In this document: one piece after another, positions 1,454 to 27,700 of the stretch
How the letters are laid out: each line of letters opens with the position of its first letter
Numbering within the stretch: the stretch's first letter is position 1
Source of the DNA: an uncultured Desulfobulbia bacterium
Lineage (GTDB): Bacteria > Desulfobacterota > Desulfobulbia > Desulfobulbales > SURF-16
NCBI GenBank assembly: GCA_964653055.1
Contig: CAZZCA010000002.1
Span: 2,822-66,821 of the forward strand
Length of the DNA stretch: 64,000 nucleotides
Direction of reading: 5' to 3'
Translations under genes and position numbers: made by a program
Notes under the pieces: model-generated
What the model was told of the DNA's origin: nothing
The model's input: only the letters and a program-made list of their open reading frames with translations
Database searches by the model: none

Positions 1454-2616
1454 GCCGGCCTGGCCAGCCTTCTTGTCTGGAAGCTGCTGCCTTTTATCTC
1501 CATATCCCCTACTGCCGGAGTAAATGCCATTATTGTTCGTTTAATTCCTTAGTTTTGGCTGGTCAGGACATTGCCGCCTATATCAGGGCCCTGGGGCGGC
1601 AGGCAGGAATGATGGCAGAACACCCTCTCGCCAGAGACCTTGTCTTTGAAACTCTGTTTGTCGGCGGCGGAACCCCTACAATTGTTCCGGCTTCTCTTCT
1701 TGCCGATTTATTGACTCGAATCAAAAATGATTTTTCTTTTACCGACCAGGTCGAGATTTCCATTGAGGCCAATCCCAATAGCCTTGACCTTGCTGACCTT
1801 GCCTTATTGCGTCGGGCCGGGGTAAATCGGCTCAGTATCGGGGTTCAGTCTTTTGATGATGATATTTTGCAGATCATTGGTCGTAGCCATACGGCCCATG
1901 AAGCCCGCAAGGCTGTTGCTCTGGCCCGGAAGGCTGGTTTTGCCAATATCAGCCTTGACCTGATATATGGACTGCCCGGACAGACGCCAGAGCTTTGGCG
2001 CCATAGCCTGCTTGCCGCCCTGGAGCTTGAGGTGGAGCATCTTTCTCTTTATCAATTAATGGTGGAGGAGAAAACGCCCCTTGCTCGTATGCTAAATCAG
2101 GGACATCTTGTTCTGCCGCAAGAGGATGCGGCCGTCGCCATGGACGAGATCAGTAGCGAGCTCCTGGCGGGTCATGGCTATGAGCGTTATGAAATTGCCA
2201 ATTATGCCAAGGCCGGATATCGCTGCCGTCATAATATGGTTTATTGGCAGAACAGGAATTATATAGGCCTGGGTGCCGGTGCAGTTTCCTGTGTGGGTGG
2301 TTTGCGTTTTAGCGGAATTAAATCACCGGATGATTTTATAATGGACCTTGTTGACAATAAACAGCCTGTTAGCCATGTAGAAGCCTTGTCTCGAGAGGCC
2401 AGGCTGCGGGAAACCATGATCATGGGCCTGCGGATGATTGATGGTTTGTCCATCTCTGAAATTGAAAGGAGGCTTGGTCTGAACCCTGCGGCGTATTACG
2501 GTGCTGAGCTTCAGCAATTAATTGAAAAGGGGTTGCTGGTTATGGATGAAGATCAGCTTCGGCTGACCCGTCAGGCTATGCCCCTGGCCAATCAGGTATT
2601 ATGTCAATTGGTTTAA
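1435..2616 (+). CDS. hemW: Radical SAM heme chaperone HemW (oxygen-independent coproporphyrinogen III oxidase-like)
   Basis: 393 aa with the radical SAM motif YLHIPYCRSKCHYCSF and a HemN-like C-terminal domain. Overlaps the radC 3' end by 19 nt. Confidence 0.9.
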   Translation: MSKDPLSRPGQPSCLEAAAFYLHIPYCRSKCHYCSFNSLVLAGQDIAAYIRALGRQAGMMAEHPLARDLVFETLFVGGGTPTIVPASLLADLLTRIKNDFSFTDQVEISIEANPNSLDLADLALLRRAGVNRLSIGVQSFDDDILQIIGRSHTAHEARKAVALARKAGFANISLDLIYGLPGQTPELWRHSLLAALELEVEHLSLYQLMVEEKTPLARMLNQGHLVLPQEDAAVAMDEISSELLAGHGYERYEIANYAKAGYRCRHNMVYWQNRNYIGLGAGAVSCVGGLRFSGIKSPDDFIMDLVDNKQPVSHVEALSREARLRETMIMGLRMIDGLSISEIERRLGLNPAAYYGAELQQLIEKGLLVMDEDQLRLTRQAMPLANQVLCQLV

Positions 2617-2621
2617 ATTAA

Positions 2622-5600
2622 TCAGATGGGGAGGATGTGGATTTCTTCCTTGGTTTGGTGGCCGCCCTGGAGAAGCAGACCCTGGCGACCATCAATGCTG
2701 ATCTGGTCGCCAAAACGGATGGTGTGGCCGTTGATCAGGCATTTTTCTTCATTTTCATAAACCTGGAGGGCCCGGCAGCCTACCAGACAGGTTTTTTCCA
2801 GGCGAATGGTCACCAGAGAGGCGTGGGAGGTCTGGCCGCCACGGGCGGTGAGGAGCCCATCGGCGGTGGAGATTTCCCGGATGTCTTCCGGTACGGTATC
2901 CTGCCTGATCAGGATCAGGGGGCTGTCTGGCGCTTTCCGGCGCAATTCCTTAATATTTTCCCTGTTGAAAACCGCCAGCCCGGACAGGGCACTGCCGCTT
3001 ACCCCGAGTCCTTTGCCCAGCAGGTTCTGGTCAACGGCCTCCTGGTCGGCAAAGACATTGAACCTTTCCTTTTTCTTAATGGTCATCATGTCCCTGGTCT
3101 GGAGGATATAAAGACCCGATTCTTCCGGGCTTTCAAAGGTAAATTCCAGCTCCTGCGGGTTCCATTGTTTTTTATAAACAAGGTCCCGGGCGATATCGAG
3201 TAATTTGCGATAAATGGCTGGAAATCGCCGTTCCAGGGTGTTGGCCACCGGTCGGCCGTCGATTTCGGCCTGTTCCACAGAAATGGCGTAGGTGCTTACC
3301 AGGCCGCTGACAATATCCTCGCCCTGGTCACCGGGAGCGTAATCGCCCCAGAGGGCCACCCTGCGCACTTTGCGGTAGGGATGGGCGGTGAAGACTACGC
3401 CGCTGCCGGAATTGCGGTTGAGGTTACCGTAAACCATGGCCTGGACAATTACCGCAGTGCCCCAGGAATCGGAGATATTCATCAGGTGGCGGAAGCCCTT
3501 GGTTTTTGCCGAATCCCAGGAGATCAGAACTATTTCCAGGGCACCGATGAGCTGCTGCCATGGATCTTCCGGAACCTTGATTCCAAGCTCTTCTATTTTG
3601 GTTTTATAGCTTAGGGCCAGCTCCTGCATCTGGGTCGGGGTAAATTCTTTTTTTACCTTAACACTGTGCCGTTCCTTGGCTTCGTTCATCAGGTTCTGGA
3701 AGATCTCCCGTTCGACCCCATGGCCCATGGCCCATGACTGGAGGAAGCGGCGGAAATTATCCCAGGCCAGATATTTCTGGCCGGAGCTTGCGGCAAAACC
3801 CCGGACAATTTCTTCGTTCAGCCCTACATTATGAATGGTGGCCATCATGCCCGGCATGGAAATAGAGGCTCCGCTGCGGACGGAAACAAGCAGAGGTTTA
3901 TGGGGGTCCTGGAAGAGGCGTCCGGTTTTTTTCTCCAGTACCTTTAACGATTGCAGGACCTGGTCCATAAACTCGTCCCGGGCTGCCCGGTACTGTTTTA
4001 CCACCGACCAGCAGCGGAAAATCTCGGTGGTGATGATGAAGCCTGGGGGTACTGGTTTCTGGTCTGCTGCCAGCTGGCTCAGGTTGAAGCCTTTATTGCC
4101 CAGGAGAATGATATTGCGGGCATGGGGGCTTTTTTGGCGCAGGTGGTGGATGACTTTTTCCGGATTATAGGTCATCAACAGGTCCAGCCGTTTCTGATCC
4201 AGGAGCTCTTTCTGCCGCTCCAGGGTCTGGTAGATTCTGGTAATGAAATTGTCGAGATGCTGCAGGCCGAAGGTCTGGGCGATGAGGTCCCGCATAAAGG
4301 TTTCGGAAAGACGGTGGATGGTCTCCTGCTGGTTTTCGTCCTCTTTTTCTTTTTCCTGCCAGAGATTCCGGTACCTGGCCAGCAGATTTTCCACACCGAT
4401 CTGGGGAATGATGATGGAGAGATTATTCTGGTGGACATTGGTGTAATAGGCGTAGATCAGGTCTTTTACCCCCTCTGACAGGCTGCGGAAAATGTCCAGG
4501 TATTGGGTATAGGAAAAGCGTTTGATCCCGAGGGAGTTGGAGAGCAGGGAAACCGAGGTTTCCAAACGGCGGCTGGTGATCCCGTCGATTTTCAGGGCCC
4601 GGAGATAGAGGCGCAGGCATTTGAGAATCCGGAGAAAGGTGGCCCGGGTAATCAGGGTCAGATTAATGGTGGAGGGCAGTTGCTCCAGAAAGATATTGGC
4701 CAGGCTCTCCAGGCGGAAGGAAAGCCCCAGGGCGTTAAATTTGCGCTCGTTATAGCAGCCGTAAACCGAAGGGATATCCACTGCAATATGACGTTTATAA
4801 TAGATGTCTTCTTTGGGCTCAAAGGTCTCCGAGCTTAAGATAATCTTCTTTAGTTTTTCCAGGTTGGTCAAGAGGGAGTTTAAGCATTGAACCGTGTCGC
4901 AGATCTCCAGATCGGCCAGTAATTGTTCCATTTCCGGAAAGCCGCCATTGGCAGCCTGCTCCAGTTGCAGGCGCAGTTCCTGGTAACCCAGGTTGTATTT
5001 CTGGTCCAGCAGCCGGTACATTTTAATCAGCAGCTGGAACCTTTTTATCTCCCGGGGATCAAGATCTTCCTGCCAAGAGAGAAAACGGTTAAGCCGGGAA
5101 TCGTCCCAGAGCAGCAGGTCTTCGCATTTGGTTATCTGGGGCTCCCGGAAGATGCGTCGGGCCAGACGATTAAGATCATTGACAAAAAGTCCATTTTCCG
5201 GGATCTGCTCCAGGATTTCCGGCGGCAGGTAGTCTTTAAGTAGGTTTTTATCCCGGCTATGCCAGAAACCGAGGATGGCCCTGATAAAATCGACAATCAG
5301 GTTGGAGCTCTCCACATGGCTCTGTTTTCGGAGGAAATGGATGAGCAGGTCTTTACGTTTGTGGATCTCGTCGATCTCAGTGGAAACATCCCTGAGCTGC
5401 CCTTCTGCTCCGATCTCATTGAAGAACACCGGCATCAGTTTGGCGAATTGTTTTACCAGGTTATAGACAGGTTCGATGGGATGGTTGAGCAGGCGACTGA
5501 TGTCACGCTGGAAAAGGTCCGTGTCTTTAACGCAGGTACCGGAAAGTTTCAGGTTGATGATCAGGGCGGAAAAAAGGGTGGCGCACCATTTGGGTTCCTG

Positions 5601-6869
5601 CATGATCAGGTTGAGCCAGACCCGGATATTAGCCAGATGGGATGGGTTGGTTATGGGCTGCCAGTCTTCATCTACCCCGGTAACATTGGCGTATTGGAAG
5701 CCGAATCGGACGGTTTCCCATAAAAATGTTTCCACCAGCCGGCTGCTGCCCCGGTTAAATACTTCAGCCCCCAAAACCTGGATACACTGGAGGGCGGTAT
5801 GGGGATAGCGGCTGATATTTTCCTTCAGCAGCTCCAGGGTGGTGAGGAGAAATGATTTAATCTCATCATAGGTCTGCTGGCGGATGAGCTGGACCAGGCT
5901 GCGGTTGATCTCCCGCAGGCTTTCTTCGTGGATGAGGTGGAGGCCGGGGGTACGCATGATCCGGAAGAGAAAGAGCAGTCGCCGGTTTTCGGCGAAACGG
6001 TCATTGTCCTCCGGGCCGGGCTGGCCCAGGGAAGCAAGTCGGGGTGGTATTTCCCGGTAGAGGCGGACAATATCGATATGGGCCGGCATGGCCAATAACC
6101 TGTCCAGTTCTTCCGGCTGGCCGGATAGCTCAATTTTCTGGAGAAAAGCCAGCTGACGGCTGATCTCTTCGTGGGAAATCGAGTTGAAGAGTTTGCCGGC
6201 ATCCCAGTCATTGCACATGTCCTGACATTGGGAAAGGAACCAGGGCAGGGGGTTTTCCTCTTTAAGCCAGTAGCGGTAATTAAGTTCAAGGACTTTCTGG
6301 AAAAGAAGGGTAAGCGGCATCAGGTTGACAGCAACACCCGTCTGCCGGCAGCGCTGGCTCAGGAGCTGGCTGATTTTTTTAATGGGGTGTTGACCCTGGG
6401 CAATGAGAAGTAGAAGGTCGTCATTTAACTGGTGAATTCTGGTAAAGAACTCGGTGAGGGCCTGGTCAAATTTATTCAGCTCAGGGCCGGCGGTTATGGT
6501 GAGGACCTGTTCGGCGTAGGCCAGGATTGATTCAGTGGCCAGGTTCAACAGGGTATCGTTTTTGCGGATGTCGGTGAGGGCAAGAAAGAAAAGTTCGTTG
6601 AAACACCTAAAGGATTCCGGCCCCTTGGGGCTGCGACAATAAAGTTCGGCATTACCCAGGGCAAAGGTACGGAGCCGTGGCAGAATCAGCTGCCAGTTGC
6701 GGTAGGGATGGTAAATTTCAGTAAGAATTTCTTCCAGAGAGGAATGAATCCCCCGGTAATTGACAACCTCGGCAAGAAGCAGGTTCATTGCCGGATCGAT
6801 TATTACCTGGTCAACAGCGGTCTCCTCCAGGTTGGCCTTAAGGGCGGCGGAATTAAACTTTTTGGTCAT
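2622..6869 (-). CDS. Large dikinase-like protein: uncharacterised ~900-aa N-terminal region + PPDK-type nucleotide-binding (ATP-grasp) domain + PEP-utilising-enzyme phospho-His swivel domain; no PEP/pyruvate TIM-barrel domain
   Basis: 1415 aa. Residues ~920-1265 carry PPDK N-terminal motifs: GNKGFNLSQL, PVPPGFIITTE, LLVSVRSGASISMPGMMATIHNVGLN, EDPWQQL, GTAVIVQAMVYGN, SGSGVVFT, GEDIVSG, LEFTFE..LYILQTRD. Residues ~1285-1415 are the swivel domain (ILIRQDTVPEDI, TARGGQTSHASLV; His codon at 2823-2825). The ORF stops 66 aa after the His. Confidence 0.8.
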   Translation of the reverse strand: MTKKFNSAALKANLEETAVDQVIIDPAMNLLLAEVVNYRGIHSSLEEILTEIYHPYRNWQLILPRLRTFALGNAELYCRSPKGPESFRCFNELFFLALTDIRKNDTLLNLATESILAYAEQVLTITAGPELNKFDQALTEFFTRIHQLNDDLLLLIAQGQHPIKKISQLLSQRCRQTGVAVNLMPLTLLFQKVLELNYRYWLKEENPLPWFLSQCQDMCNDWDAGKLFNSISHEEISRQLAFLQKIELSGQPEELDRLLAMPAHIDIVRLYREIPPRLASLGQPGPEDNDRFAENRRLLFLFRIMRTPGLHLIHEESLREINRSLVQLIRQQTYDEIKSFLLTTLELLKENISRYPHTALQCIQVLGAEVFNRGSSRLVETFLWETVRFGFQYANVTGVDEDWQPITNPSHLANIRVWLNLIMQEPKWCATLFSALIINLKLSGTCVKDTDLFQRDISRLLNHPIEPVYNLVKQFAKLMPVFFNEIGAEGQLRDVSTEIDEIHKRKDLLIHFLRKQSHVESSNLIVDFIRAILGFWHSRDKNLLKDYLPPEILEQIPENGLFVNDLNRLARRIFREPQITKCEDLLLWDDSRLNRFLSWQEDLDPREIKRFQLLIKMYRLLDQKYNLGYQELRLQLEQAANGGFPEMEQLLADLEICDTVQCLNSLLTNLEKLKKIILSSETFEPKEDIYYKRHIAVDIPSVYGCYNERKFNALGLSFRLESLANIFLEQLPSTINLTLITRATFLRILKCLRLYLRALKIDGITSRRLETSVSLLSNSLGIKRFSYTQYLDIFRSLSEGVKDLIYAYYTNVHQNNLSIIIPQIGVENLLARYRNLWQEKEKEDENQQETIHRLSETFMRDLIAQTFGLQHLDNFITRIYQTLERQKELLDQKRLDLLMTYNPEKVIHHLRQKSPHARNIILLGNKGFNLSQLAADQKPVPPGFIITTEIFRCWSVVKQYRAARDEFMDQVLQSLKVLEKKTGRLFQDPHKPLLVSVRSGASISMPGMMATIHNVGLNEEIVRGFAASSGQKYLAWDNFRRFLQSWAMGHGVEREIFQNLMNEAKERHSVKVKKEFTPTQMQELALSYKTKIEELGIKVPEDPWQQLIGALEIVLISWDSAKTKGFRHLMNISDSWGTAVIVQAMVYGNLNRNSGSGVVFTAHPYRKVRRVALWGDYAPGDQGEDIVSGLVSTYAISVEQAEIDGRPVANTLERRFPAIYRKLLDIARDLVYKKQWNPQELEFTFESPEESGLYILQTRDMMTIKKKERFNVFADQEAVDQNLLGKGLGVSGSALSGLAVFNRENIKELRRKAPDSPLILIRQDTVPEDIREISTADGLLTARGGQTSHASLVTIRLEKTCLVGCRALQVYENEEKCLINGHTIRFGDQISIDGRQGLLLQGGHQTKEEIHILPI

Positions 6870-6878
6870 CTAATACCT

Positions 6879-7886
6879 TTACAGGGCTTTTTCGTTTTCC
6901 ATATGGAGGATCAGGTCCAGCACCCGGTTGGAATAACCCCATTCATTGTCGTACCAGCTCATAATCTTGACCATATTGCCCTGGATAACCCTGGTGGACA
7001 TGGCATCTACCACCGAGGAGCAGGGATTGCCCTGGTAGTCGATGGAAACCAGGGGCTTGTCGGAAAAGCCAAGGTAGCGGTTGCTGGCTCCTTCCAGCTC
7101 CTGATTTACTTCGGAGACTGTGGTTTCCTGCTCCACCTCCATCACCGTATCAATTATTGAAACATTGGCGGTGGGAACCCGCACAGCCAGACCGTCGAAT
7201 TTACCCTTCAGTTCCGGAATAACCTTGGCAACGGCAGCAGCGGCCCCGGTACGGGTGGGGATCATTGACAGGGCAGCTGCCCGGGCCCGGCGCAGATCGC
7301 TATGGGGAAAATCAAGGATCCGCTGGTCATTGGTATAGGAATGGATAGTGGTCATCAGGCCCTTGCGCAGGCCAAAGCGGTTGAGAATGACCTTGGCCAC
7401 CGGCGCCAGGCAATTGGTGGTGCAGGAGGCGTTGGAAACAATGTGGTCCTTGCCGGGGTCGTATTCATGTTCATTAACCCCCATGACAATGGTTTTGACC
7501 TTGCCCTTGGCCGGGGCGGAAATAATAACCTTGGCCGCACCGCTGTCAAGATGGCCCTCGGCCTGTTCACTGCTGGTGAACAGCCCTGTAGCTTCGATAA
7601 TATACTCAGCTCCGGTCTCTGTCCAGGGGATGTCCCCGGGGGTCCGGTGGTTGGTTACCGGGATGAATTTGCCCGCCACCTTGATCCCGCCTGGCTCCGA
7701 ATCTACCTCTTGGGTCATGGTTCCCATGATGGAGTCGTATTTCAGGAGGTGGGCCAGGGTTTCGGTATTAGTCAGATCGTTGATGGCGACAACTTCAAGG
7801 TTCTGGAAAAGGGGGTCTTTGCCTATGGCCCGGAAGATACTTCTGCCGATACGACCAAAACCGTTGATGCCAATTGCGATTGTCAT
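6879..7886 (-). CDS. gap: Type I glyceraldehyde-3-phosphate dehydrogenase
   Basis: 335 aa with INGFGRIGR NAD-binding motif, active-site SNASCTTNCLAP, and WYDNEWGYS. Confidence 0.97.
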   Translation of the reverse strand: MTIAIGINGFGRIGRSIFRAIGKDPLFQNLEVVAINDLTNTETLAHLLKYDSIMGTMTQEVDSEPGGIKVAGKFIPVTNHRTPGDIPWTETGAEYIIEATGLFTSSEQAEGHLDSGAAKVIISAPAKGKVKTIVMGVNEHEYDPGKDHIVSNASCTTNCLAPVAKVILNRFGLRKGLMTTIHSYTNDQRILDFPHSDLRRARAAALSMIPTRTGAAAAVAKVIPELKGKFDGLAVRVPTANVSIIDTVMEVEQETTVSEVNQELEGASNRYLGFSDKPLVSIDYQGNPCSSVVDAMSTRVIQGNMVKIMSWYDNEWGYSNRVLDLILHMENEKAL

Positions 7887-8686
7887 GACTCCCTCCCCTC
7901 TTGTTGTTGGTTAAGCTGAAAGTTACGGGCTTCCCCATTGGCGGGATTAAGCTCCAGGGCTTTCTTATAGGTAGCGGCAGCCTCCTGCCACCACAGCCCT
8001 TCCTGGTAGCTTCTTGCGGCCTGGCAATAGCCTTCATCTCCCTTACCGGCGAAGATTTCGCTGAAGATGTCAGCCAGTGGTTCGGCCCATAATTCTGTGG
8101 CCATCTCTTCATGTTCCACCAGATAGCGCAGGAGGAGGCGGTTATTCTTTAACGATGGCAGGGTAATTCGCAGGAGATAATTGGCCCGGCCGAACATCAT
8201 GCCGATATCCTCAAGCTGGCTGGCGGCCTCTTTTAAGATCCGTTCCATTAAACGCTGACATTCAAAGCCGCAGTGGATGGTGGTTTCATCTGCCTCATGC
8301 TGCAGGCCCTGGGCCAGTGGCCCGTAATATTTATGAAGGTAGATATTTTCCTTCAGCTTCATTGCCTCGTGGAAGATGGAGCCGATGAGCCAGTCCAGGA
8401 GGTAGCCGTTGATTTCCGGCAGGGTTTCGCTTTGTTGCCAGAGCTGATGACAATGATCCTTGAGTAGCCAGAGGCTGCCTTTATTATTCTCGCTTCCCAC
8501 CAGCCGATCCAGATCCTGGTAGGAGATATGGCCGGAATGAAGATAGCGTTGATAGATGTCAAGAAACCCCTTCATGGTGTGGTGAAAACCACGGAAAAGG
8601 TTTTTGGTGAAATAGTCACGGCGGGCGCTGTACCAGCGATTCTGACCCTGACCTGGGTTATTGAGGATGGGCTCTATTTTCTGCAT
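7883..8686 (-). CDS. Hypothetical protein with C-terminal TPR-like segment
   Basis: 267-aa ORF. It overlaps the glgA-like stop by 13 nt and the gap start by 4 nt. Only the TPR-like tail (AATYKKALELNPANGEA) is recognisable. Confidence 0.6.
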   Translation of the reverse strand: MQKIEPILNNPGQGQNRWYSARRDYFTKNLFRGFHHTMKGFLDIYQRYLHSGHISYQDLDRLVGSENNKGSLWLLKDHCHQLWQQSETLPEINGYLLDWLIGSIFHEAMKLKENIYLHKYYGPLAQGLQHEADETTIHCGFECQRLMERILKEAASQLEDIGMMFGRANYLLRITLPSLKNNRLLLRYLVEHEEMATELWAEPLADIFSEIFAGKGDEGYCQAARSYQEGLWWQEAAATYKKALELNPANGEARNFQLNQQQEGRES

Positions 8687-10239
8687 AGGGTGATTGCTTC
8701 GCGGTAGAGCTGCAGGTATTTTCGAACCACCTGGTTCCAGGAATAATTTTCCCTGATATTAAGAACAGCCTTTCTCTGTATCTTAGCAAGAATTTCCGGG
8801 TTACGGCGGAAAATTTTCAGGGCATTTTTGATGGTCTCTTCCAGGGTGGTGTTATTGTGGGCACCGTAGCTGAAACCGGTTTGGCCATGGATTATTTTCA
8901 CCAGGCCTCCCACATGATGGACAATGGGAATATTGCCAAAGAGCTGGGCGATATAATCGGTAAGGCCACAGGGCTCGTACAGGGATGGCAGCAGGAAGAA
9001 ATCACCGGCAGCATAGATCTTGTTGGCAATGTCCCGGTCATATCCCTGGAGAACACAGAGCCGACCCTTGAATTTCTGGCAGAGCGAGGTTAGTTCAGCT
9101 TCAATCTCTCTGCTGCCGGTGCCGAGAATTACCACCTGGAATTTTTTATCTTCTGCCAGCAGCCTGGTCAGGGTTTTGATGAGGTCGGCAAAGCCTTTCT
9201 GGGCTGAAAAACGGCTGATCATGGAAAGCAGGGGCCAGTCCGGCTCCATGGCAAGTGAGCCGTGGACAGTGACCCCGGTCAGCTGGTCAAGGTGGTTAAT
9301 CAGGCTTTTTTTACAGATTTTTTTGCCGGCAAGGTCCATGGTTGCAGGGTTAAAGGGGGCGGCAAGGTTCAGTATTTTATGGTGCCTGGGGTTAAAATCC
9401 CCCGGGTTGATGCCGTTGGTGATACCCCTGATTTGCACCCCTTTTTCCCGAAGAAGATGACCCAGGCCACCGGTTAATTTATCGGCCTGGGTTTCCTGGA
9501 GCTCCCGGGCATAATTTTCGCTGACAGTATTGATGATGGCATAGGGGCCGGCGGCGAGAAAGGGGTTAAAAGAGCCGTGGAGAAGGTGTTGGTCGGTTAC
9601 GGCGGTTGGCAGGCCTGTAATGGCCCGGGCAAAGGGCAGATCGTCAATCTCCTGGTGATAACCAAGGCCGGCATTATGGACGGTGACCACCATCCCGGTA
9701 TTACGGAAAAAATGACGGAAACCTTCAAGTTCCCGGGCCATGGCCGGGATCAGGGCGGTATGGCCGTCGTGACAATGGATAATGGCTGGTGGCTCCCGGA
9801 GAATCATCATCAGGCAGAGTGCCGCCTTCTCCAGCAGAACATTCATGGCAAAATAATCGTAATGACCGTTGCCTTGCTGATGGAGAGGGTTGGCCTCTTC
9901 GTCTGCGGTGGAATAGGTGTAAACCGAGTTTTTTTCACGGTAGCGCCGGGTATCGATCAGGTAAATATGGAGATTTGCCCATTCCTGCTGCCAGACCTGG
10001 ATCTCTTCCCGTCGTTCTTCGCCAACATAGTCCATGTCCACGGTAAATTGCGGGCCCGGGCTAAAGCCCAGGTCTTTCGGGTTCATGAATCCATAGCAGG
10101 GCAGGCAGACCGAGACCTGGCAATGACGGCTTAATGCTTCTGCCAGCTGACGGCAGACGTCTTTGATGCCCCCGGCTCCGGCCAGGCCTTCATATTCCCT
10201 GGTAATCAGCCAGGCATGCTTGAGGGTTTTTTTGCTCAT
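8674..10239 (-). CDS. glgA: Glycogen/starch synthase-like glycosyltransferase (GT5 N-terminal + GT1 C-terminal), divergent
   Basis: N-terminal EYEGLAGAGGIKDV sits in the position of the KTGGL motif. C-terminal LLPSLYEPCGLTDYIAQLFGNIPIVHHVGGL resembles GlgA. Start chosen at the internal Met (MSKKTLKHAWLI); the longest ORF reaches 10284 and would overlap aroC. Confidence 0.8.
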   Translation of the reverse strand: MSKKTLKHAWLITREYEGLAGAGGIKDVCRQLAEALSRHCQVSVCLPCYGFMNPKDLGFSPGPQFTVDMDYVGEERREEIQVWQQEWANLHIYLIDTRRYREKNSVYTYSTADEEANPLHQQGNGHYDYFAMNVLLEKAALCLMMILREPPAIIHCHDGHTALIPAMARELEGFRHFFRNTGMVVTVHNAGLGYHQEIDDLPFARAITGLPTAVTDQHLLHGSFNPFLAAGPYAIINTVSENYARELQETQADKLTGGLGHLLREKGVQIRGITNGINPGDFNPRHHKILNLAAPFNPATMDLAGKKICKKSLINHLDQLTGVTVHGSLAMEPDWPLLSMISRFSAQKGFADLIKTLTRLLAEDKKFQVVILGTGSREIEAELTSLCQKFKGRLCVLQGYDRDIANKIYAAGDFFLLPSLYEPCGLTDYIAQLFGNIPIVHHVGGLVKIIHGQTGFSYGAHNNTTLEETIKNALKIFRRNPEILAKIQRKAVLNIRENYSWNQVVRKYLQLYREAITLCRK

Positions 10240-10244
10240 CAGGA

Positions 10245-11327
10245 TCAGTCGTCGGTCATTTCGGTTTCCGGCAGTAATTGACATGCCCGGTTCCGGAGGA
10301 GGTGGTCGGCCAGGGTCAGGCAGACCATGGCCTCACAAACCGGGATGATCCTGGGAATTGCCGAAATATCATGGCGGCCGCCTATCTTGATCTCCACTGG
10401 TTCATTGTCCATATTTACTGTCTGCTGGCTTTTGCCGATGGAGGGGATTGGTTTCACCGCCACCCGGCTGATAATTGGCTCACCATTGGAGATGCCGGCC
10501 AGGATCCCGCCGGCATGGTTAGAGGTGAAGCCGTCCGGGGTAATGGCATCGTTGTTTTCCGAGCCGGTCATGGAGGCTGCGGCAAAACCGGAACCGATCT
10601 CCACTGCCTTGACTGCCCCGATGGACATCAGGGCTCCGGCCAGATCGCCGTCCAGTTTATTAAAAACCGGCTCACCCAGTCCGGCCGGACAGCCGGCGGC
10701 CAGGATCTCGACAATTCCCCCCAGGGTATTACCTTCGTTCTTAACCTGGCTGATTTTCTCTTCCATGCGTTTGGCCGCCTCAGGGTCAGGGCAGCAGAGG
10801 CGATTATCCCGGATGGCGTTCAGGTCCAGGTTCTCAATAAAAATCCCCCCCAACGACAGGGTATAGGCCAGAACCTCGATATCGTGACTGGCCAGGATCT
10901 TCCGGGCCACGGCACCGGCTGCTACCCGGGCTGCGGTTTCCCGGGCCGAGGCCCGGCCTCCGCCGCGGTGGTCCCGGATCCCGTATTTGCAGAGATAGCT
11001 GAAATCCCCATGGCCGGGGCGGAAGATATCCTTTAAGTGGTTATATGACTTACTGTGGGCGTCTTTATTGAAGATCACAAGAGAAATGGGGGTCCCGGTG
11101 GTCATTCCTTCAAAAACACCGGAGAGGATCTCCACCTTGTCCGGTTCTTTGCGGGGAGTGGACGGGCCGCCGCCGCCCGGTTTACGGCGGTCAAGGTCCT
11201 GCTGGATATCTGCCGGGGCCAGGGGAATGCCTGCCGGGCAGCCGTCGATGGTGGCGCCGATGGCGGTTCCGTGTGATTCACCCCAGGTGGTTATGCGAAA
11301 AATCTGGCCAAAAGTATTTCCTGCCAT
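10245..11327 (-). CDS. aroC: Chorismate synthase
   Basis: 360 aa with MAGNTFGQIFRITTWGESHG, GRSSARETA-like motif (GGGRASARETAARVAAG), and GGRHD. Confidence 0.97.
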   Translation of the reverse strand: MAGNTFGQIFRITTWGESHGTAIGATIDGCPAGIPLAPADIQQDLDRRKPGGGGPSTPRKEPDKVEILSGVFEGMTTGTPISLVIFNKDAHSKSYNHLKDIFRPGHGDFSYLCKYGIRDHRGGGRASARETAARVAAGAVARKILASHDIEVLAYTLSLGGIFIENLDLNAIRDNRLCCPDPEAAKRMEEKISQVKNEGNTLGGIVEILAAGCPAGLGEPVFNKLDGDLAGALMSIGAVKAVEIGSGFAAASMTGSENNDAITPDGFTSNHAGGILAGISNGEPIISRVAVKPIPSIGKSQQTVNMDNEPVEIKIGGRHDISAIPRIIPVCEAMVCLTLADHLLRNRACQLLPETEMTDD

Positions 11328-11340
11328 TGTTCTACCTTTT

Positions 11341-11868
11341 TTATTGTAGTTGGTTTTGCCATGACCTGGTGATCTGGCTGACGATATCTTTTAAGTCTAT
11401 ATCGGTGTTTATCTGCAGGTCAGAGCCGGCCTCATAAAGAGGGGTTCTTTCTTTGAGAACTGTATTTACTTCCTGTAAAATATCATTACCGGTGAGTGAT
11501 GGACGCTGGCCGGCGGTTGCCAGGTCTTCTGCCAGTCGCTGGCAGATAACCTCGGTGCTGGCGGTGAGCCAGATGGTCAGGGCTGTCTGGCGGAGACCTG
11601 CCCAGGCATTTTCGTGGAGAATGGCGCCACCACCGGTGGCAATAACAATTTCTTGCGCCTGGCATAGTTCTGTTAGCAGGTTCTTTTCCTGCTTTCTGAA
11701 AAAATCCCAGCCCTGTTGTCCTACCATCTCACTGATGGAGCAATTATTGCGCTTTTCAATCTCCAGATCAGTATCAAGGAAACTGAAATTAAGCCTTTCT
11801 GCCAATAATCTGCCCACAGAAGTTTTTCCGGTGGCCCGGTAGCCGGTGAGAATAATTTTATTTTTCAT
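11341..11868 (-). CDS. aroK: Shikimate kinase
   Basis: Walker A GYRATGKTSVGRLLA; ATGGG motif. Start placed at MKNKIILTG; the longest ORF starts at 11907. Confidence 0.9.
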   Translation of the reverse strand: MKNKIILTGYRATGKTSVGRLLAERLNFSFLDTDLEIEKRNNCSISEMVGQQGWDFFRKQEKNLLTELCQAQEIVIATGGGAILHENAWAGLRQTALTIWLTASTEVICQRLAEDLATAGQRPSLTGNDILQEVNTVLKERTPLYEAGSDLQINTDIDLKDIVSQITRSWQNQLQ

Positions 11869-12046
11869 TATCCCATGATAAACGAAGTTGTTTTTTTTTG
11901 TCATCATTATATTTACCCTTTACCACCTGTATCTTTAGGGCTAATTTGTAGGCAGTTTTAATGCCTATTGGCTTACAAGCAGTTAATGGGCAATGATGTG
12001 ATAATTAACAGCCATCCTTGATGGTTTTCAGATTTGGGAGAATAAA

Positions 12047-12742
12047 ATGACAGAAAAAAAGATGGTAATTGCCCTGGCCACCCGTAATCAGGGTAAGGTT
12101 AGAGAGTTTGCCAAGCTTCTTGAGGGCTATCCTGTAGACCTGCGCAGCCTTGCCGATTTCGGCCCGGTGCCTGAGGTGGTGGAGGATGGAGAGACCTTTG
12201 ACGATAATGCCTATAAAAAGGCATCTTTTGTTGCCCGGGTGCTGGGGGTGCCGGCCATTGCCGATGATTCCGGTCTGGTGGTGGAGGCCCTGGGCGGGGA
12301 CCCTGGAGTTCATTCCGCCCGATATGCCGGTGAAAAGGCCACTGATAGAGATAATATAGATAAGCTTCTTCAGGAGATGGCAGACAAAACAGATCGTCGT
12401 GCTGCCTTTGAATGTGTAATTTCCATTGCGGTTCCAGCCGGCACCGCTCTTACCTATGAGGGGCGCTGTGAGGGTGAGATCACCCGGGAGATCCATGGTG
12501 ATGGTGGTTTTGGCTACGACCCGGTATTTCGCTGCCAGGGCTTTGACAAGACCTTTGCAGAAATCGAGATGGAGGACAAGAATCGAGTCAGCCACCGGGG
12601 GCGGGCCCTGGCCGAGGTGGTGGCCGAGTTTGACAAGGTGATGGTCTGGTTGAATCAGCGAATCACCGAGATGAAACCTCCCAAGCCGGATCACAGCCAA
12701 TTTGAACATAATGACTGGTCAGAACCGGATATGGTTAAATAA
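12047..12742 (+). CDS. rdgB: Non-canonical purine NTP pyrophosphatase (XTP/dITP diphosphatase, RdgB/HAM1 family) with ~30-aa C-terminal extension
   Basis: 231 aa with ATRNQGKVREF, DDSGLVVEALGGDPGVHSARY, GFGYDPVF, and SHRGRAL. Confidence 0.93.
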   Translation: MTEKKMVIALATRNQGKVREFAKLLEGYPVDLRSLADFGPVPEVVEDGETFDDNAYKKASFVARVLGVPAIADDSGLVVEALGGDPGVHSARYAGEKATDRDNIDKLLQEMADKTDRRAAFECVISIAVPAGTALTYEGRCEGEITREIHGDGGFGYDPVFRCQGFDKTFAEIEMEDKNRVSHRGRALAEVVAEFDKVMVWLNQRITEMKPPKPDHSQFEHNDWSEPDMVK

Positions 12743-22623: not shown

Positions 22624-24726
22624 ATGCCGAGCTCTAATGTTTTTGACATAGGTGCCTATTGTCAGCGGATGGAAAGGTACCTTGGTGATCAGGACGGGGT
22701 GGCCCGGCTTTTTTGGCGGGCCCTTTCCTTCGGAGTTGATGCCCATCAGTATCAGATGCGTAAATCAGGGGAGGCCTATGTCAGTCATCCCTGCCTTGTT
22801 GCCCTTATTCTGGTGGAGGAGCTGGGTGTCACCGATCCGGCGACTCTGGCTGCCGCCATGCTCCATGATACCATTGAGGATGTGGAAGATGTGACCAGTG
22901 AGGTTATTTCTTCCATCTTCGGTAAGCATGTGGCCGCCATTGTGGACGGCTGCACCAAGATCAGCAATTTTGACGGTGATCGTCAGAGTTTTTCCAAAAT
23001 GGTTCATCGCAAGATCTTTGCCCAGGCCTCTTCCCGGGTGGAGATCCTGCTGGTTAAGCTGGCTGACCGGCTCCATAATCTCCGGACCATGGACGCCATG
23101 CCCCGTCATAAACGGCAGAAGATTGCTGACGAGACCCTGGCGGTTTATGCCCCCATGTCCGGGATCATGGGACTTTATGCCCTGAAACGGGAGCTTTATG
23201 ACCTGGCTTTGATCTATAAATTTCCTCGTCAGGGGCAGAAGGTCATGGGGGTGATCCGTAAGCTGGAGAAGCTGGAGCAGGCCCAGGTTATCTGTGATGA
23301 CCTGAAAGAATCCCTGATTCAGGCCGGGGTGGAGGCCGAGGTTCGTTTGAAGGCCAAGGGACTGTGGGCCTATTATGATCCCCTTAGCCGCATTCTTTCC
23401 CGGCAGCTGGAAAACCCTCTGGAGGTATTGGTGGTGGTGGATGGTGTTCATTCCTGCTATCAGGCCCTGGGGGTGATTAATCAGCTCTTTCCCCCCATCC
23501 CCCGGACCATCCGCGATTTTATTGCCAACCCCAAGGCCACCGGCTACCAGAGCCTGCATTCCAGGGCCAATATCCGGGGTCGTAATTATCTTTTCAAGAT
23601 CAGGACCAGTGAGATGATGGCTGATGCCCGTAACGGTATTGTCCGGGAATGGCTTACCCAGCGGACTGTGCCCGGCGGTTTCCCCCGGGAGATCCGGGAG
23701 ATGCTGGGGATTTTAGGACGGGACGACAGTTATCGTGATATCATCGCCGCCAGCGGCAAGAAAGAGATCTATACCTATACCCCCAAGGGTGATTGTTTTT
23801 CTCTGCCCCGGAACAGCACTGTCCTGGATTTTGCCTTTAAGGTCCATACCGAGGTTGGTCGCCGTTGTCTGGGGGCCAAGGTTGGTCAGCAACAGGTGGG
23901 GGTTGACCATGTTCTTGCCGATGGCGACCGGGTCAGGATAATTACCCGGGAGGAGCCGGTTCGTTTTGAGCCGGAGATCCATCAATTATGTCAGACAGCC
24001 CGGGCCCGTTCAGAATTATCCCGCAATTTCCGTTTTCGCCGTCAGCAATTGGCCCGGCGCATTGGCCGCTCATTGCTCGAGCAGGAATTAAAACGTTATG
24101 GCATGCCCTTAGAGCTCCTGGAAAAAGATGAGTTTGATCATATTCTCGAGTATTACGGGGCGGAAGACCTGCCGGCCCTCTATCTGGCCATTGGTCAGGG
24201 CCGTCAGCGCTTAAAAGAGCTGCTCTATGAGATTAAAAACGGTCTCTATGCCGATCGGCAGACCCTGCTGCCCCCCACCGGTGCCCTTAATCGGGTTTAT
24301 CTGGAGACCCTTGACCAGGCCTGTATCAAGCTTTCCCGGTGTTGCCGGCCGGCTCCCACGGAAAAGGGGCTCCTGGCCCTGATGGATGATCGCGGCCTTT
24401 CGGTGCACAGGAAGGAATGTTCCCGGCTTAAGGGGTTGAAGATGCAGCGGGAGGATGTTCTGGAGGTTCGCTGGCATTTGAAAAACACCAGGGTACGGAA
24501 ACGGCAGAACCTGCTGGTTCTGGATACCCCCCGGAATAGATTGTTTATGATGCTCAGTGTGGCACCCCTTGCCATGAAGATTGTCGATGTTGACGGGCTT
24601 TCCCGCCAGGCCAGTGCCGGTGCCTGGGATATTGCCTTTGAGGTGCAGACCCTGCAGGAATTGAAGTATGTACTTCAGCATTTTCAAAAGGGTAAGCTCG
24701 ACTATGAATTTGCTCTGGAGCAGTGA
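22624..24726 (+). CDS. Long RelA/SpoT homolog (HD hydrolase + synthetase-like + TGS + C-terminal regulatory region); synthetase motifs look degenerate
   Basis: Hydrolase motifs are present: KSGEAYVSHP, LHDTIEDV, LVKLADRLHNLRTM. The synthetase-like region keeps PKATGYQSLHS but has LFKIRT where EVQIRT is expected. TGS motif: IYTYTPKGDCFSLPRNSTVLDFAFKVH. Confidence 0.9.
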   Translation: MPSSNVFDIGAYCQRMERYLGDQDGVARLFWRALSFGVDAHQYQMRKSGEAYVSHPCLVALILVEELGVTDPATLAAAMLHDTIEDVEDVTSEVISSIFGKHVAAIVDGCTKISNFDGDRQSFSKMVHRKIFAQASSRVEILLVKLADRLHNLRTMDAMPRHKRQKIADETLAVYAPMSGIMGLYALKRELYDLALIYKFPRQGQKVMGVIRKLEKLEQAQVICDDLKESLIQAGVEAEVRLKAKGLWAYYDPLSRILSRQLENPLEVLVVVDGVHSCYQALGVINQLFPPIPRTIRDFIANPKATGYQSLHSRANIRGRNYLFKIRTSEMMADARNGIVREWLTQRTVPGGFPREIREMLGILGRDDSYRDIIAASGKKEIYTYTPKGDCFSLPRNSTVLDFAFKVHTEVGRRCLGAKVGQQQVGVDHVLADGDRVRIITREEPVRFEPEIHQLCQTARARSELSRNFRFRRQQLARRIGRSLLEQELKRYGMPLELLEKDEFDHILEYYGAEDLPALYLAIGQGRQRLKELLYEIKNGLYADRQTLLPPTGALNRVYLETLDQACIKLSRCCRPAPTEKGLLALMDDRGLSVHRKECSRLKGLKMQREDVLEVRWHLKNTRVRKRQNLLVLDTPRNRLFMMLSVAPLAMKIVDVDGLSRQASAGAWDIAFEVQTLQELKYVLQHFQKGKLDYEFALEQ

Positions 24727-27700
24727 CCCAGGAAAAAGAGGAGAATGTCCCGATTATGGTTGATTCTGTCATAAGGCAATTTGTCGGAGTTGACCTGTTT
24801 ATCGGCCGGGAGCAGGAGCTTGCCTCCCTCTGGCTTGCCCATCATAGAATCTCTGGCGGCCCTGCCGTAATGGTGCTGATTGCCGGCGAGTCAGGTGTGG
24901 GCAAGACCTGCCTGGTTGACAACCTGGGTCGGCAATTGGCTGAGAATGACCACCTCTTGATCAGGGGCAAATTTGATCAGTTTGACCTGGGAGTTCCTTA
25001 TAGCGGCTTTGTTCAGGCCCTTGATCAACTGGCCGTGCATCTGCTCAGCCTTGACCAGGATGACCGGCTTGCCTTTTGTCATCGTTTTGAGCGGGAGATG
25101 GCCGGCAACGGATTCCTGGTCACCGGCCTGGCTCCCCGCCTGGAAGAAATTGTCGGCCCCCAGCCGTCCCTGGCCAGTGTTGGTGAAAAGGAAGGCCGGA
25201 ATCGTTTTGAGCAGGCCCTGGAGTCTTTTTTCCGGGTTATTGCTACCCGGGAGCACCCTCTCACTCTTTTTCTTGATGATCTTCAATGGGTTGGTCAGGC
25301 TTCCCTTGGTCTGTTGCAGCGGCTGCTGACCCGTAACCAATATCTCTTAATCATCGGCGCCTGTCGCTCGGGGGAGGTGGGGGAGGACCATTGTCTCTCC
25401 GTTTTTCTCGATTCTTGCAATAAGCATGGTGACAGTGGCGGGGTGGGTACCCTGCCCAACCTGGTGACAGACCATCTTTCCTGCTTTTCCCGGGGCAATA
25501 TGGTTCTGGCAATTATTCTTGAACCATTTGATCTTGTCCAGGTAGGCAAGCTTGCCTCCAGTCTTTTGTATGGTCAGCAACTTCCCTCTTCTTTAAGCAG
25601 TTTATTGCAGGCAAAGACCGGTGGTAATCCTTTGCTCGTTAAGCAGGTTCTTGCCTCTCTCTGGCTTGAAGGGGTTATCTTTATTGACCAGGAAGGTGGT
25701 GAGTGGAAATGGAATCAGGAGGAGGTCGACAGGTTTTTTGCAGGTGATATAAACAAGCTGATTAATAGACAATTATCCCACTATAACGATGAAGAGCTCC
25801 ATCTCCTGGGATTTGCCGCCTGTCTTGGCTATCGATTTAATGCAGACCTTATGGCGCTGGTCAGTAATTTTGCCAGATCCCGTGTTCTTGATTTCTTCCA
25901 GCGCCTGACCGGGGACGGTTTGCTGGTGCATGAGAGAGGTGGTAACGGATTCTATCATTTTGCCCATGATCGTTTTCAGGGCGCGGCCTATTTGCTGGTC
26001 AAAGACGATGAGCGGGCCTCTCAGCACCTGGCCATTGCCCGGGGAGTGCAGCGTTATTGGGGTGATGTCCGGGACGAGGCCATATTCTTTCTCATGGTGG
26101 AGCAGTTTAATAAGGGTTCGTCTCTTCTTGTTGACACAAAAGCAAAATTTGAGCTGGCCAGGTTCAACCTGGAGGCTGGATACAAGGCTCGTAAGGGCAC
26201 GGATTATAATCGGGCCGAGCACTACTTCACCCTTGGTCTGGCCATCTTGCCGGATGATTGCTGGGAAAGTGATTATGGCTTAACCGTTAATCTGGCCCGG
26301 CAACAGGGGGAATGCCTTTTCCTCATAGGCGATTTGGCCGGCTCAGAAGCGGCTTTTCGGAAAATTCTCCAGCAATCCCTTGATATTCTCGATCGGGTTG
26401 CAGTTCATGAATATATGATTCTCATCCATGAGAGCAAGGATGACCCGGAAGAGGGATTGGCCTGGGGCTTCAGGGGTCTTGCCCTGCTTGGGGAAAAGGT
26501 AAGCTCTTCTGCTGTGGCCCTGCAAATATTAAGGGAGCTTGCCCTGGTGCGTTGGCGGCTGCGGGGTCAGCGATTGCAGCAGTTTGCCCGTTTGGCCCCC
26601 ATGGAGAATGATCGGATTAAGGCCAGGTTTAACCTGATGATGCGGATGATGCCGGTATCGTATTTTGTTGATATTAATGTTTCGGTTTTTCTTGCCCTCA
26701 GGATGACCAATCTGTCATTGGCTTATGGTCTTCATCCGGCAACCTCTTTTGCTCTGTTGACCTATGCGGTGGCGGAGGGTTCTTTTTTTGGGCGTTACCA
26801 GTTTGCCAGCCAGGTAGCAGATCAGGCCATGTTTCTTTCCAGGGAGGATGGTTCCGACTCTTTTACAACCAGAATTGGGCATCTTTATGGCACCTTTATC
26901 TGTCATTGGACCAAGCCTCTTCCCCTGGCAATAAGAGAGCTGGAGGGTGCAATTGATATTGCAGGGGTCAATGGTGATGTCTTTTATGGTCATTATGCCC
27001 TGTCGGCGCTGCTCCTTGATCAGCTAATGGCAGGTTACTCTCTGTCGTCAATTGAGGATCTGGCAAGACTTGCCAGCATTGAAGAACCTGATTTGTATTT
27101 TCATAATATATTACAGATTTCGTCCTTGGTTCCCGTTGTTTTGGCAATGCTGAGGGGGCAGGAGCCGGGGCAGGTTAATTTGCCGGCTGTGGAGGGACTG
27201 GGTCGAGTTGAAGAGGTGTTTGAGCAATTCAAGAAGACAAAGATAGATAGTTATTATCATTATTTCATCATCTTTAGGATGGTGTCTTTATATCTTGCTG
27301 CTGATTATCGGCAGGCTCGGTCTCTGGCTGTTGAAATTGAACATGAGGTTGGCAGTAAGCTGTTGGGGCAATTAGCAGTGCCTGTTCATAATTTTTTTTA
27401 TTCCCTGAGCCTTGCTGGTTGTTATCGGGAGGCGTGCCGGCTGGAAAAAATGAAGATAAGGGGGCAGATCTGGCTCAATCAGCGAAAGATGGGGCGTTGG
27501 GCTGAAAATAGTCCGGAAAATTTTCAGCCTTGTTATCTTCTGGTGGAGGCAGAGCGAGCCTGTTTGCGCCATGATGATGGCCGGGCTGAGGAGCTTTATC
27601 AAAAGGCAGCTGAGCTGGCGGAAGAAAACGGGTTTAATCATTATGCCGGGATTGCCTGGGAGCGCCTGGCCATGCTTTATCTTGTCGGCGGTGGCAATGA

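Follow-up and report, generated by a model that had tools for sequence, protein, structure and literature searches.

What serves as phosphoryl acceptor for a dikinase-like protein that carries the nucleotide-binding and phosphohistidine modules of pyruvate, phosphate dikinase (PPDK) and no TIM barrel for phosphoenolpyruvate (PEP) and pyruvate? The question is raised by a gene, here termed BIG, in a 64,000-nucleotide stretch (the window) of contig CAZZCA010000002.1 from an uncultured Desulfobulbia bacterium. An initial annotation of the window, made from its letters alone, had proposed that the protein is a dikinase bearing a new acceptor-binding or regulatory module, and this proposal is supported by the analyses presented here, both computational tests aimed at refuting it having failed to do so. 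The annotation mentioned only in passing the gene that is the partner of BIG across phyla, that for glyceraldehyde-3-phosphate dehydrogenase (GAPDH). We conclude that BIG represents a branch of the dikinase superfamily that is widespread, has not been characterised, and is wrongly annotated. Its adjacency to GAPDH suggests that lower glycolysis/gluconeogenesis includes a phosphate-transfer step, or a point of control, that has yet to be described.

The BIG open reading frame (ORF) opens with an ATG and runs for 1415 codons on the minus strand of the window (2622..6869, including the stop codon at 2622-2624), as first annotated; all coordinates within BIG given below are on that strand. Residues from ~920 onwards had been read as the first two modules of PPDK, and this was borne out by both Pfam and the Protein Data Bank (PDB). 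Pfam placed PPDK_N at residues 965-1201 (E 1e-23) and PEP-utilizers (PF00391) at 1317-1397 (E 5e-14), and PEP-utilizers_C (PF02896), the PEP/pyruvate TIM barrel, was not found in the same scan of the protein. In a phmmer comparison with PDB sequences, residues 916-1260 and 1282-1408 aligned with residues 14-338 and 390-514 of the PPDK of C. symbiosum (E 1.6e-77). On this basis, together with the matches to TIGR01828 and the alignment to 1kbl/9pzl, a PPDK-type ATP-grasp nucleotide-binding domain was assigned to residues 906-1265 (3075..4154), and a linker and C-terminal phospho-His swivel domain to residues 1266-1415 (2625..3074). The latter contains the motif GGQTSHAS, whose His1349 has its codon at 2823-2825, exactly where the annotation had put it.

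Residues K926, R998, E1240, E1242, Q1257, and R1259 of BIG correspond to K22, R92, D321, E323, Q335, and R337 of PPDK. Among 56 diverse full-length relatives (described below), these ATP/Mg residues are kept in 54-56, or in 53-56 if the T1347-S1348-H1349 triad is included, with H1349 itself present in 55. Since both the ATP/Mg residues and the triad are conserved across the family, the ATP-grasp and phospho-His module is very likely active. Only 66 residues separate His1349 from the C-terminus (1415 - 1349), and the stop codon lies 5 nt from the end of a convergent HemW-like radical-SAM ORF (1435-2616), both as originally described.

Homologues of BIG are numerous and end in the same manner. 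When the N-terminal 905 residues were used as the query, 1148 homologues were retrieved at 90% clustering, and because these have the N-terminal region in common we take the ORF to be a genuine gene and no chance reading frame. The best 120 of the 1148 share 62-100% identity and are nearly all 1404-1458 residues long with only PF01326 and PF00391, the three shorter ones being fragments; in 117 of the 120 the C-terminus lies exactly 66 residues after the His. When 1.84 billion cluster representatives were searched exhaustively with HMMER, the family grew to 568 clusters at E<=1e-3 (195 at E<=1e-30), as defined by clustering at 50% identity, and 386 GTDB species have a match. Full-length members range from 1335 to 1540 residues, with identity down to ~30%, and in an alignment of 56 diverse ones the C-terminus falls 39-77 residues after the catalytic His in all. 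Truncation of BIG, or its being one half of a split gene, was therefore rejected: all 56 of the diverse members end soon after the His, and no gene with PEP-utilizers_C was present in any gene neighbourhood read. BIG belongs to a conserved family from which the TIM barrel is missing in every member examined, so that what the annotation had stated for this locus, that no barrel is encoded in BIG or nearby, holds for its orthologues as well.

By source name the hosts include Desulfobulbia, Desulfobacteria (Desulfotignum), Thermodesulfobacteria (Thermodesulfobacterium, Caldimicrobium), and Nitrospirota (Thermodesulfovibrio), along with Bacteroidales, Tenuifilaceae, Cloacimonadota, Delongbacteria, Fermentibacteria, Myxococcota, and Thermoleophilia, and all of these lineages are anaerobic or from anaerobic habitats. 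The features that define the proposed family of GAPDH-associated TIM-less dikinases, all of which BIG displays, are the motifs DTDLFQRD, FNEIGAEGxLR, HFLRKQxHVE, and KRHIAxxIPSxYG, followed by PPDK_N and PEP-utilizers, an end less than 80 residues past the His, and a neighbouring GAPDH or GAPDH* gene (GAPDH* being a divergent paralogue described below). Full-text searches of the literature returned no description of this family or of any 3-phosphoglycerate dikinase.

In sequence databases family members are named "pyruvate, phosphate dikinase," "phosphoenolpyruvate synthase," or "PEP/pyruvate-binding domain-containing protein." Taken at face value, the first two names imply a true PEP-forming enzyme in which the TIM barrel has been swapped for a non-homologous domain, and the gluconeogenic functions in the same operon, GAPDH and, in Desulfobulbia, a glgA-like gene, would be in keeping with this. 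We consider it quite unlikely, however, as the names stem only from the shared N-terminal modules of those enzymes. BIG scored 361 bits with the PPDK model TIGR01828, against an equivalog cutoff of 843, over model positions 12-335, and 50-57 bits with the PEP synthase models TIGR01418 and NF005057, against cutoffs of 598-740 (57 versus 598 in one comparison), the TIM barrel being missing. Moreover, the conserved genomic link of the family is to GAPDH; enolase, pyruvate kinase, and other pyruvate-metabolising enzymes show no such link.

The N-terminal ~900 residues, described at first as mostly helical and without a recognised motif, could not be assigned to a characterised family by any of the approaches taken. 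Searches of the 905 residues against Pfam, as a whole and in two halves, gave nothing meaningful even at E<=10, there was no match in NCBIfam, and the N-terminal regions of 21 family members searched individually against Pfam also returned no family. A profile search of PDB sequences with the domain gave no match (best E 0.28). AlphaFold2 (AF2) modelled the region (910-residue model) with a mean predicted local distance difference test (pLDDT) score of 91.3 and a predicted template-modelling (TM) score (pTM) of 0.88 as an all-alpha body with a single beta-hairpin, and the conserved core alone (401-residue model) with a pLDDT of 91.4. Foldseek searches of the PDB with these two high-confidence models yielded, for the former, only generic solenoids at TM <=0.16 and, for the latter, no relative (best E=1.1). 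The domain, which spans ~850-1020 residues across the family, is thus predicted with confidence to have a fold for which Foldseek finds no PDB relative, and it contains a candidate active site.

That site is suggested by the distribution of conservation among the 56 diverse sequences. The variable helical N-terminal arm (residues 1-390, 5700..6869), delimited from the AF2 model and the conservation profile, has a mean majority-residue frequency of 0.32 over residues 61-390 and contains a small conserved N-terminal motif (A9, L10, N13, E51, H54-P55, and N58). It is followed by conserved core A (residues 391-560, 5190..5699; pLDDT >90), a putative second active site with the motifs NPxHLxNIR (H411), DTDLFQRD (D449 and D451), FNEIGAEGxLRDVST (E489 and R493), D500, and LIHFLRKQxHVES (H511, R514, K515, and H518). 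A variable helical insert (residues 561-680, 4830..5189), in which K624-Y625 is invariant, separates core A from core B (residues 681-725, 4695..4829). In core B, strands 686-693 and 700-707 form the one beta-hairpin of the domain, and the motif is ExIYxKRHIAxxIPSxYGxYxExKF (K692, R693, H694, S701, Y703, and Y706). Long helices with conserved R860 and D873 (residues 726-905, 4155..4694) then lead to the ATP-grasp domain. The mean majority-residue frequency is 0.32-0.37 for residues 61-390 and 561-680, 0.60 for 391-560, and 0.70 for 681-725, the most conserved stretch of the protein; the cores therefore equal or exceed the ATP-grasp (0.56) and His (0.53) domains. Sixteen positions can be named at which the residue is the same in 56 of 56 sequences: H411, D449, R493, D500, R514, K515, H518, K624, Y625, K692, H694, and S701, and additionally P480, G490, L673, and G704. 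D451, E489, R505, D507, H511, R693, Y703, and Y706 are nearly so, and these residues are gathered in four motifs (DTDLFQRD, FNEIGAEGxLRDVST, LIHFLRKQxHVES, and IYxKRHIAxxIPSxYGxY).

Arg and Lys residues for anions, Asp and Glu for Mg2+, and His for acid/base chemistry make up a set that resembles the PEP/pyruvate site of PPDK. We infer that the core is a putative second active or ligand-binding site, in which the cationic residues would bind phosphate or carboxylate, the acidic residues Mg2+, and the histidines would act as acid/base, and that the new-fold N-domain is probably catalytic, a regulatory role being the alternative. Two shorter members, P0206 (1231 residues) and P0269 (1172 residues), are missing ~150-240 residues of the variable N-terminal arm and retain the conserved core, PPDK_N, and PEP-utilizers, and the core is therefore the indispensable part of the new domain. 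At the other extreme of length, P0313 (1540 residues; L087:10001-14623) has an extra N-terminal extension of ~140 residues that is a hemerythrin domain, and P0165 and probably P0161, of the same clade, also have a ~140-residue N-terminal extension. The hemerythrin domain suggests an input of O2, redox state, or iron in this clade.

Gene neighbourhoods offered a lead on the pathway in which BIG may act. In the window, a type I GAPDH gene (6879..7886, minus strand; Pfam Gp_dh_N/C, and 416 bits with TIGR01534 against a cutoff of 367) lies directly upstream of BIG, its TAA stop being separated from the BIG ATG by 9 nt (AGGTATTAG). In total, 168 loci were compared, among them 80 from GTDB Desulfobulbia species and 80 from metagenomes, the latter retrieved by means of a profile of the core domain in distant members. 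GAPDH lies upstream of BIG in 64 of the 80 Desulfobulbia loci, a glgA-like gene in 53, and aroC in 46. Because such synteny within a single class could be simple inheritance, distant clades were sampled. Over all 168 loci GAPDH is within 1 kb of BIG in 97, with many of the remaining loci ending at contig edges, and the 97 fall into three arrangements: upstream on the same strand (47, canonical GAPDH), upstream and divergent (24, canonical), and downstream on the same strand (26, a divergent GAPDH, here GAPDH*).

Of 10 informative look-ups of distant lineages, GAPDH adjoins BIG in nine, the hemerythrin-fused clade being the sole informative case without it. In a Bacteroidales metagenome-assembled genome (MAG) the adjoining GAPDH is divergently oriented; one sampled genome (L083) has the order BIG-GAPDH*-GAPDH-PGK-TIM-SecG (PGK, phosphoglycerate kinase; TIM, triosephosphate isomerase); Thermodesulfobacterium geofontis and Caldimicrobium have GAPDH-BIG-GAPDH* with abutting or overlapping ORFs; and in a Thermoleophilia MAG (L171) whiA and a divergent GAPDH* precede BIG-GAPDH-PGK/TIM-iPGM-SecG. 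GAPDH is also next to BIG in Desulfotignum, Thermodesulfovibrio, and three further sampled loci or clades, and the reverse look-up, with GAPDH* as the starting point, retrieved BIG. BIG-GAPDH adjacency accordingly extends over at least six bacterial phyla, including Thermodesulfobacteriota, Nitrospirota, Bacteroidota, and Actinomycetota. As it occurs in three arrangements, with two GAPDH subfamilies, and in this many phyla, functional coupling is far more likely than chance or inheritance.

GAPDH* is a divergent type I GAPDH of 381-417 residues. Of its several insertions, the most extensive lie close to residue 60, around residues 100-130, and towards the C-terminus. With TIGR01534 it scored 337 and 284 bits, below the cutoff of 367. 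The catalytic His, the Cys of SNASCTT, and the Arg and Thr residues of the phosphate site are all retained. Genes for GAPDH* beside BIG are located at L083:14342-15589, L088:14233-15480, L169:12158-13405, L170:12106-13332, L171:6649-7893, L173:4989-6242, and L174:8638-9876. Some genomes with GAPDH* also encode a canonical GAPDH, and databases label GAPDH* as an ordinary type I GAPDH.

No other neighbour showed a comparable association. All-against-all clustering of neighbour proteins identified GAPDH as the only specific family common to Desulfobulbia and the other clades. One other common cluster, of 75 proteins, consists of signalling proteins (the representative examined looks GGDEF-like, and other members are GGDEF, histidine-kinase, and response-regulator genes) and was rejected as a partner, being generic and without fixed position. 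LepA, RelA/SpoT, Fur, and PurA neighbours reflect local synteny in Bacteroidales only. Thermodesulfobacteria and a further genome have the arrangement rpoN-hpf-(ptsN)-rapZ, the GAPDH/BIG block coming directly after it and a small GNAT acetyltransferase gene (L169:3750-6984, L172:651-3879, and L083:4214-9917), and in the Thermoleophilia MAG (L171) the block comes after rapZ-yvcK-whiA. A role in the phosphotransferase system (PTS) was considered on the basis of rpoN-hpf-ptsN-rapZ and rejected, the arrangement being attributed to a common placement of gap after rapZ/whiA.

The glgA-like neighbour deserves separate mention, as it had led to the suggestion of glycogen or maltodextrins as the acceptor, which would make BIG a glucan dikinase like the plant enzymes GWD and PWD. 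In the window this family GT5 gene stands two genes upstream of BIG, as it does at 53 of the 80 Desulfobulbia loci. Outside that class it is almost absent: the neighbour analysis found it at 45 Desulfobulbia loci versus two others (2 of 88 loci outside Desulfobulbia), and both it and a TPR-like neighbour were rejected as functional partners on account of being lineage-specific. In addition, no carbohydrate-binding module was found in BIG or 20 relatives, and the order of its domains is unlike that of GWD. The suggestion thus fared poorly, and we regard a glucan dikinase as very improbable.

What reaction, then, might BIG carry out beside GAPDH? Carboxylate kinases are classical partners of phosphorylating aldehyde dehydrogenases, examples being PGK/GAPDH, aspartokinase/ASA-DH, and glutamate kinase/GPR, and we therefore propose 3-phosphoglycerate (3-PG) and 1,3-bisphosphoglycerate (1,3-BPG) as the substrate pair. 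The ATP-grasp domain would phosphorylate His1349 from the beta-phosphate of ATP, probably with inorganic phosphate (Pi) and with release of AMP and pyrophosphate (PPi) as in PPDK, the use of Pi and release of PPi being probable because the nucleotide domain is far closer to that of PPDK than to that of PEP synthase. The swivel domain, on its single linker, would then ferry the phosphoryl group to the putative basic/acidic pocket of the new domain, whose core is suggested as the delivery site because it is the only conserved candidate site for the His-bound phosphate. There, 3-PG and the phosphorylated enzyme (E-His~P) would be interconverted with 1,3-BPG and E-His; transfer from phospho-His to a carboxylate has a precedent in succinyl-CoA synthetase. 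Together with GAPDH or GAPDH*, this would constitute a PGK-independent, AMP/PPi-linked route between 3-PG and glyceraldehyde-3-phosphate (G3P), which would be reversible like PPDK and in which the labile acyl phosphate might be channelled.

From textbook free energies of -45.6 kJ/mol for ATP->AMP+PPi and -49.4 kJ/mol for 1,3-BPG hydrolysis, the conversion of 3-PG, ATP, and Pi to 1,3-BPG, AMP, and PPi was calculated at ~+4 kJ/mol, compared to ~+16 kJ/mol for the PPDK reaction (textbook standard values). The proposed reaction is nearer equilibrium than that of PPDK, and either direction is therefore possible. In one direction it could provide a PPi/AMP-linked gain of ATP in fermenters and sulfate reducers, which produce AMP and PPi, and in the opposite direction an extra gluconeogenic pull in autotrophs such as Thermodesulfobacterium. 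Energy metabolism linked to PPi/AMP is widespread among anaerobes and sulfate reducers. Our preferred explanation is a phosphoryl exchange, mediated by His, of ATP(+Pi)/AMP(+PPi) with 3-PG/1,3-BPG, although we give it somewhat less than an even chance of being correct. The fuller claim, that BIG is an unrecognised AMP/PPi-linked "3-phosphoglycerate, phosphate dikinase" with a second active site in a new fold, which with GAPDH or GAPDH* forms an alternative to the universal GAPDH+PGK couple in anaerobes (sulfate reducers, Cloacimonadota, anaerobic Bacteroidales, Thermoleophilia, and others), is more doubtful and is put forward only tentatively.

Several observations weigh against such an exchange. 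PGK lies beside BIG in at least two genomes, and since the two coexist BIG does not replace PGK. To our knowledge there is also no bacterial precedent for the bypass of a near-equilibrium step. A helical domain of ~900 residues looks unusually large for the binding of a small metabolite and more like a scaffold for protein interaction, and the fusion to hemerythrin in a clade with no neighbouring GAPDH suggests signalling.

The last two points are more in keeping with a regulatory kinase, in which the autophosphorylating module is joined to a helical N-domain that scaffolds a tetramer of GAPDH or GAPDH* and might also bind a metabolite, so as to tune flux in lower glycolysis/gluconeogenesis, the phosphate being either passed to GAPDH or used to modulate binding on it. 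There is a model for such a protein in VadK (Rv1127c), a TIM-less PPDK that autophosphorylates on His and binds and regulates enzymes of the methylcitrate cycle (PMC13400623). Where the ORF of BIG abuts or overlaps that of GAPDH*, a stoichiometric complex is suggested, some members are fused to a hemerythrin sensor, and the weak Foldseek matches of the N-domain are to solenoid-type proteins, such as karyopherins and HEAT proteins, of a kind that typically binds other proteins, although matches at TM <=0.16 are not meaningful. The C-terminal half of BIG also scores 292 bits on NF004531, a 534-residue model named "pyruvate, phosphate dikinase" that is too short to include a TIM barrel; NF004531/PRK05878 (~490-534 residues) is presumably the VadK-type family. 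VadK works without an extra domain, however, and the most conserved part of BIG consists of invariant charged and His residues in the N-domain core, which is more typical of a catalytic site than of a surface for docking. Further, a dedicated GAPDH paralogue with intact catalytic residues is easier to reconcile with a metabolic pairing than with a regulator acting on a target. A VadK-like role for BIG, in either of these modes, is the main rival to the exchange reaction, and we view it as possible but on the unlikely side.

It is also conceivable that BIG is a dikinase for some other small acceptor, be it glycerate, G3P or dihydroxyacetone phosphate (DHAP), or another carboxylate reduced by GAPDH*, or that it performs a pyrophosphoryl transfer; the adjacency to GAPDH would then reflect the pathway context and no shared intermediate. 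The dikinase superfamily keeps acquiring acceptor domains, as seen for rifampicin in rifampicin phosphotransferase (RPH; PMC4844700), for hydroxyphenylethanones (PMC12167813), and in the prodiginine ligases. The invariant polar core would suit many anionic ligands, and with scores under the TIGR01534 cutoff GAPDH* may have an altered substrate. In Desulfobulbia and the Bacteroidales clade, on the other hand, the partner is an ordinary type I GAPDH that is above that cutoff and has 57% identity to a housekeeping GAPDH, which points to G3P/1,3-BPG chemistry, and we judge a different acceptor to be improbable.

Few steps in bacterial metabolism are considered as invariant as those between G3P and 3-PG. 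Here, a large, strongly conserved phosphotransfer protein with intact catalytic residues, mislabelled in databases as PPDK or PEP synthase, is encoded within the gap(-pgk-tpi) operon or next to it. It occurs in at least six anaerobic phyla, often together with a GAPDH paralogue of its own. Should BIG be a metabolic enzyme, it would bring a new AMP/PPi-coupled reaction to lower glycolysis/gluconeogenesis, and calculations of energy yield and metabolic reconstructions would change for sulfate reducers, syntrophs, and the anaerobes of digesters and the rumen. Should its role be one of control, a PPDK would have been converted for a second time, independently of VadK, into a kinase that governs a central pathway. 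Either way, metabolic models derived from genome annotation that count BIG as PPDK or PEP synthase are probably wrong. Cultured carriers exist in Thermodesulfobacterium geofontis OPF15, whose family member is WP_013910164.1, and in Caldimicrobium thiodismutans.

In the window BIG is the last gene of a tightly packed co-directional run, all on the minus strand, of which the first genes listed are aroK (11341-11907) and aroC (10245-11327). These are followed by the GT5 glycogen/starch-synthase-like (glgA-like) gene (8674..10284; 536 residues), an operon context largely confined to Desulfobulbia, which overlaps aroC by 40 nt and the TPR-like gene downstream by 13 nt. Its product is under every NCBIfam GlgA cutoff (best 273.9 versus 328), and may not be a standard GlgA. 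The TPR-like gene (7883..8686), between the glgA-like gene and gap, encodes a 267-residue protein with only sub-threshold TPR matches and no NCBIfam family; it is likewise lineage-specific, being present in 22 of 80 Desulfobulbia loci. A scan of 2300-12200 for promoters gave no signal above shuffled sequences, and in a scan of the same region for terminators the terminator-like excess fell inside coding sequence. Two other ORFs of the window, both on the plus strand, have unusual architectures. That at 24723-28886 (1387 residues) encodes an unusual STAND-like sensor histidine kinase, its N-terminal AAA_16 ATPase being joined to PAS, HisKA_3, and HATPase_c domains, and is located just downstream of a RelA/SpoT-family gene (22624-24726, 700 residues), and that at 58151-60232 (693 residues) is a fusion of class II aldolase and short-chain dehydrogenase domains.

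One of the known systems nearest to BIG is PPDK (EC 2.7.9.1; C. symbiosum, PDB 1KBL/1DIK). The two share an ATP-grasp domain and a phospho-His swivel, and the T-S-H triad and ATP/Mg residues of PPDK are conserved in BIG. Given this match of domains and residues, BIG probably performs the same first two partial reactions (ATP + Pi + His -> AMP + PPi + His~P). It differs from PPDK in having no TIM barrel, in the 905-residue all-alpha domain ahead of the ATP-grasp, in its genomic partner, GAPDH, and in a swivel that is C-terminal on one linker, whereas that of PPDK is on two. VadK of M. tuberculosis, a PPDK minus the TIM barrel that tunes flux through the enzymes it binds (PMC13400623), is like BIG in being derived from PPDK by loss of the barrel, with the ATP-grasp and catalytic His kept. 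VadK, however, has ~490 residues and no additional domain, whereas BIG adds a conserved ~900-residue domain, and the two differ in taxa and in partner (the methylcitrate cycle for VadK, GAPDH for BIG). The 292 bits of BIG on NF004531 are below the cutoff of 456, and its architecture is more than ATP-grasp and His alone. The sequence features of BIG are nevertheless compatible with an autophosphorylation of the swivel His that depends on ATP and Mg, as in the VadK type.

In RPH, a dedicated acceptor domain is present and a C-terminal His swivel shuttles between it and the ATP-grasp domain (PMC4844700). The three-part logic is alike in BIG, with an ATP-grasp, a separate (in BIG, putative) acceptor domain, and a C-terminal swivel on one linker, but the rifampicin-binding domain of RPH follows the ATP-grasp domain and precedes the His domain, and it has no relation to the N-domain of BIG. 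BIG scored 24 bits with the RPH model NF041857, against a cutoff of 999, over a short ATP-grasp stretch only. The glucan dikinases differ from BIG on two counts. GWD and PWD have N-terminal CBM45 or CBM20 modules and a His domain ahead of a C-terminal nucleotide-binding domain; in BIG the ATP-grasp precedes the His domain, and the N-terminal regions of BIG and 20 relatives contain no CBM family. BIG is therefore partly PPDK-like but no member of PPDK, and the defining architectures of VadK and RPH are also not those of BIG. Its functional analogue, if the proposed exchange between 3-PG and 1,3-BPG is correct, would be the PGK/GAPDH couple, with which it shares the genomic pairing with GAPDH and the proposed substrate pair; it has no relation to PGK in sequence or fold, and would differ from it in employing a two-step transfer through phospho-His and in forming AMP(+PPi) instead of ADP.

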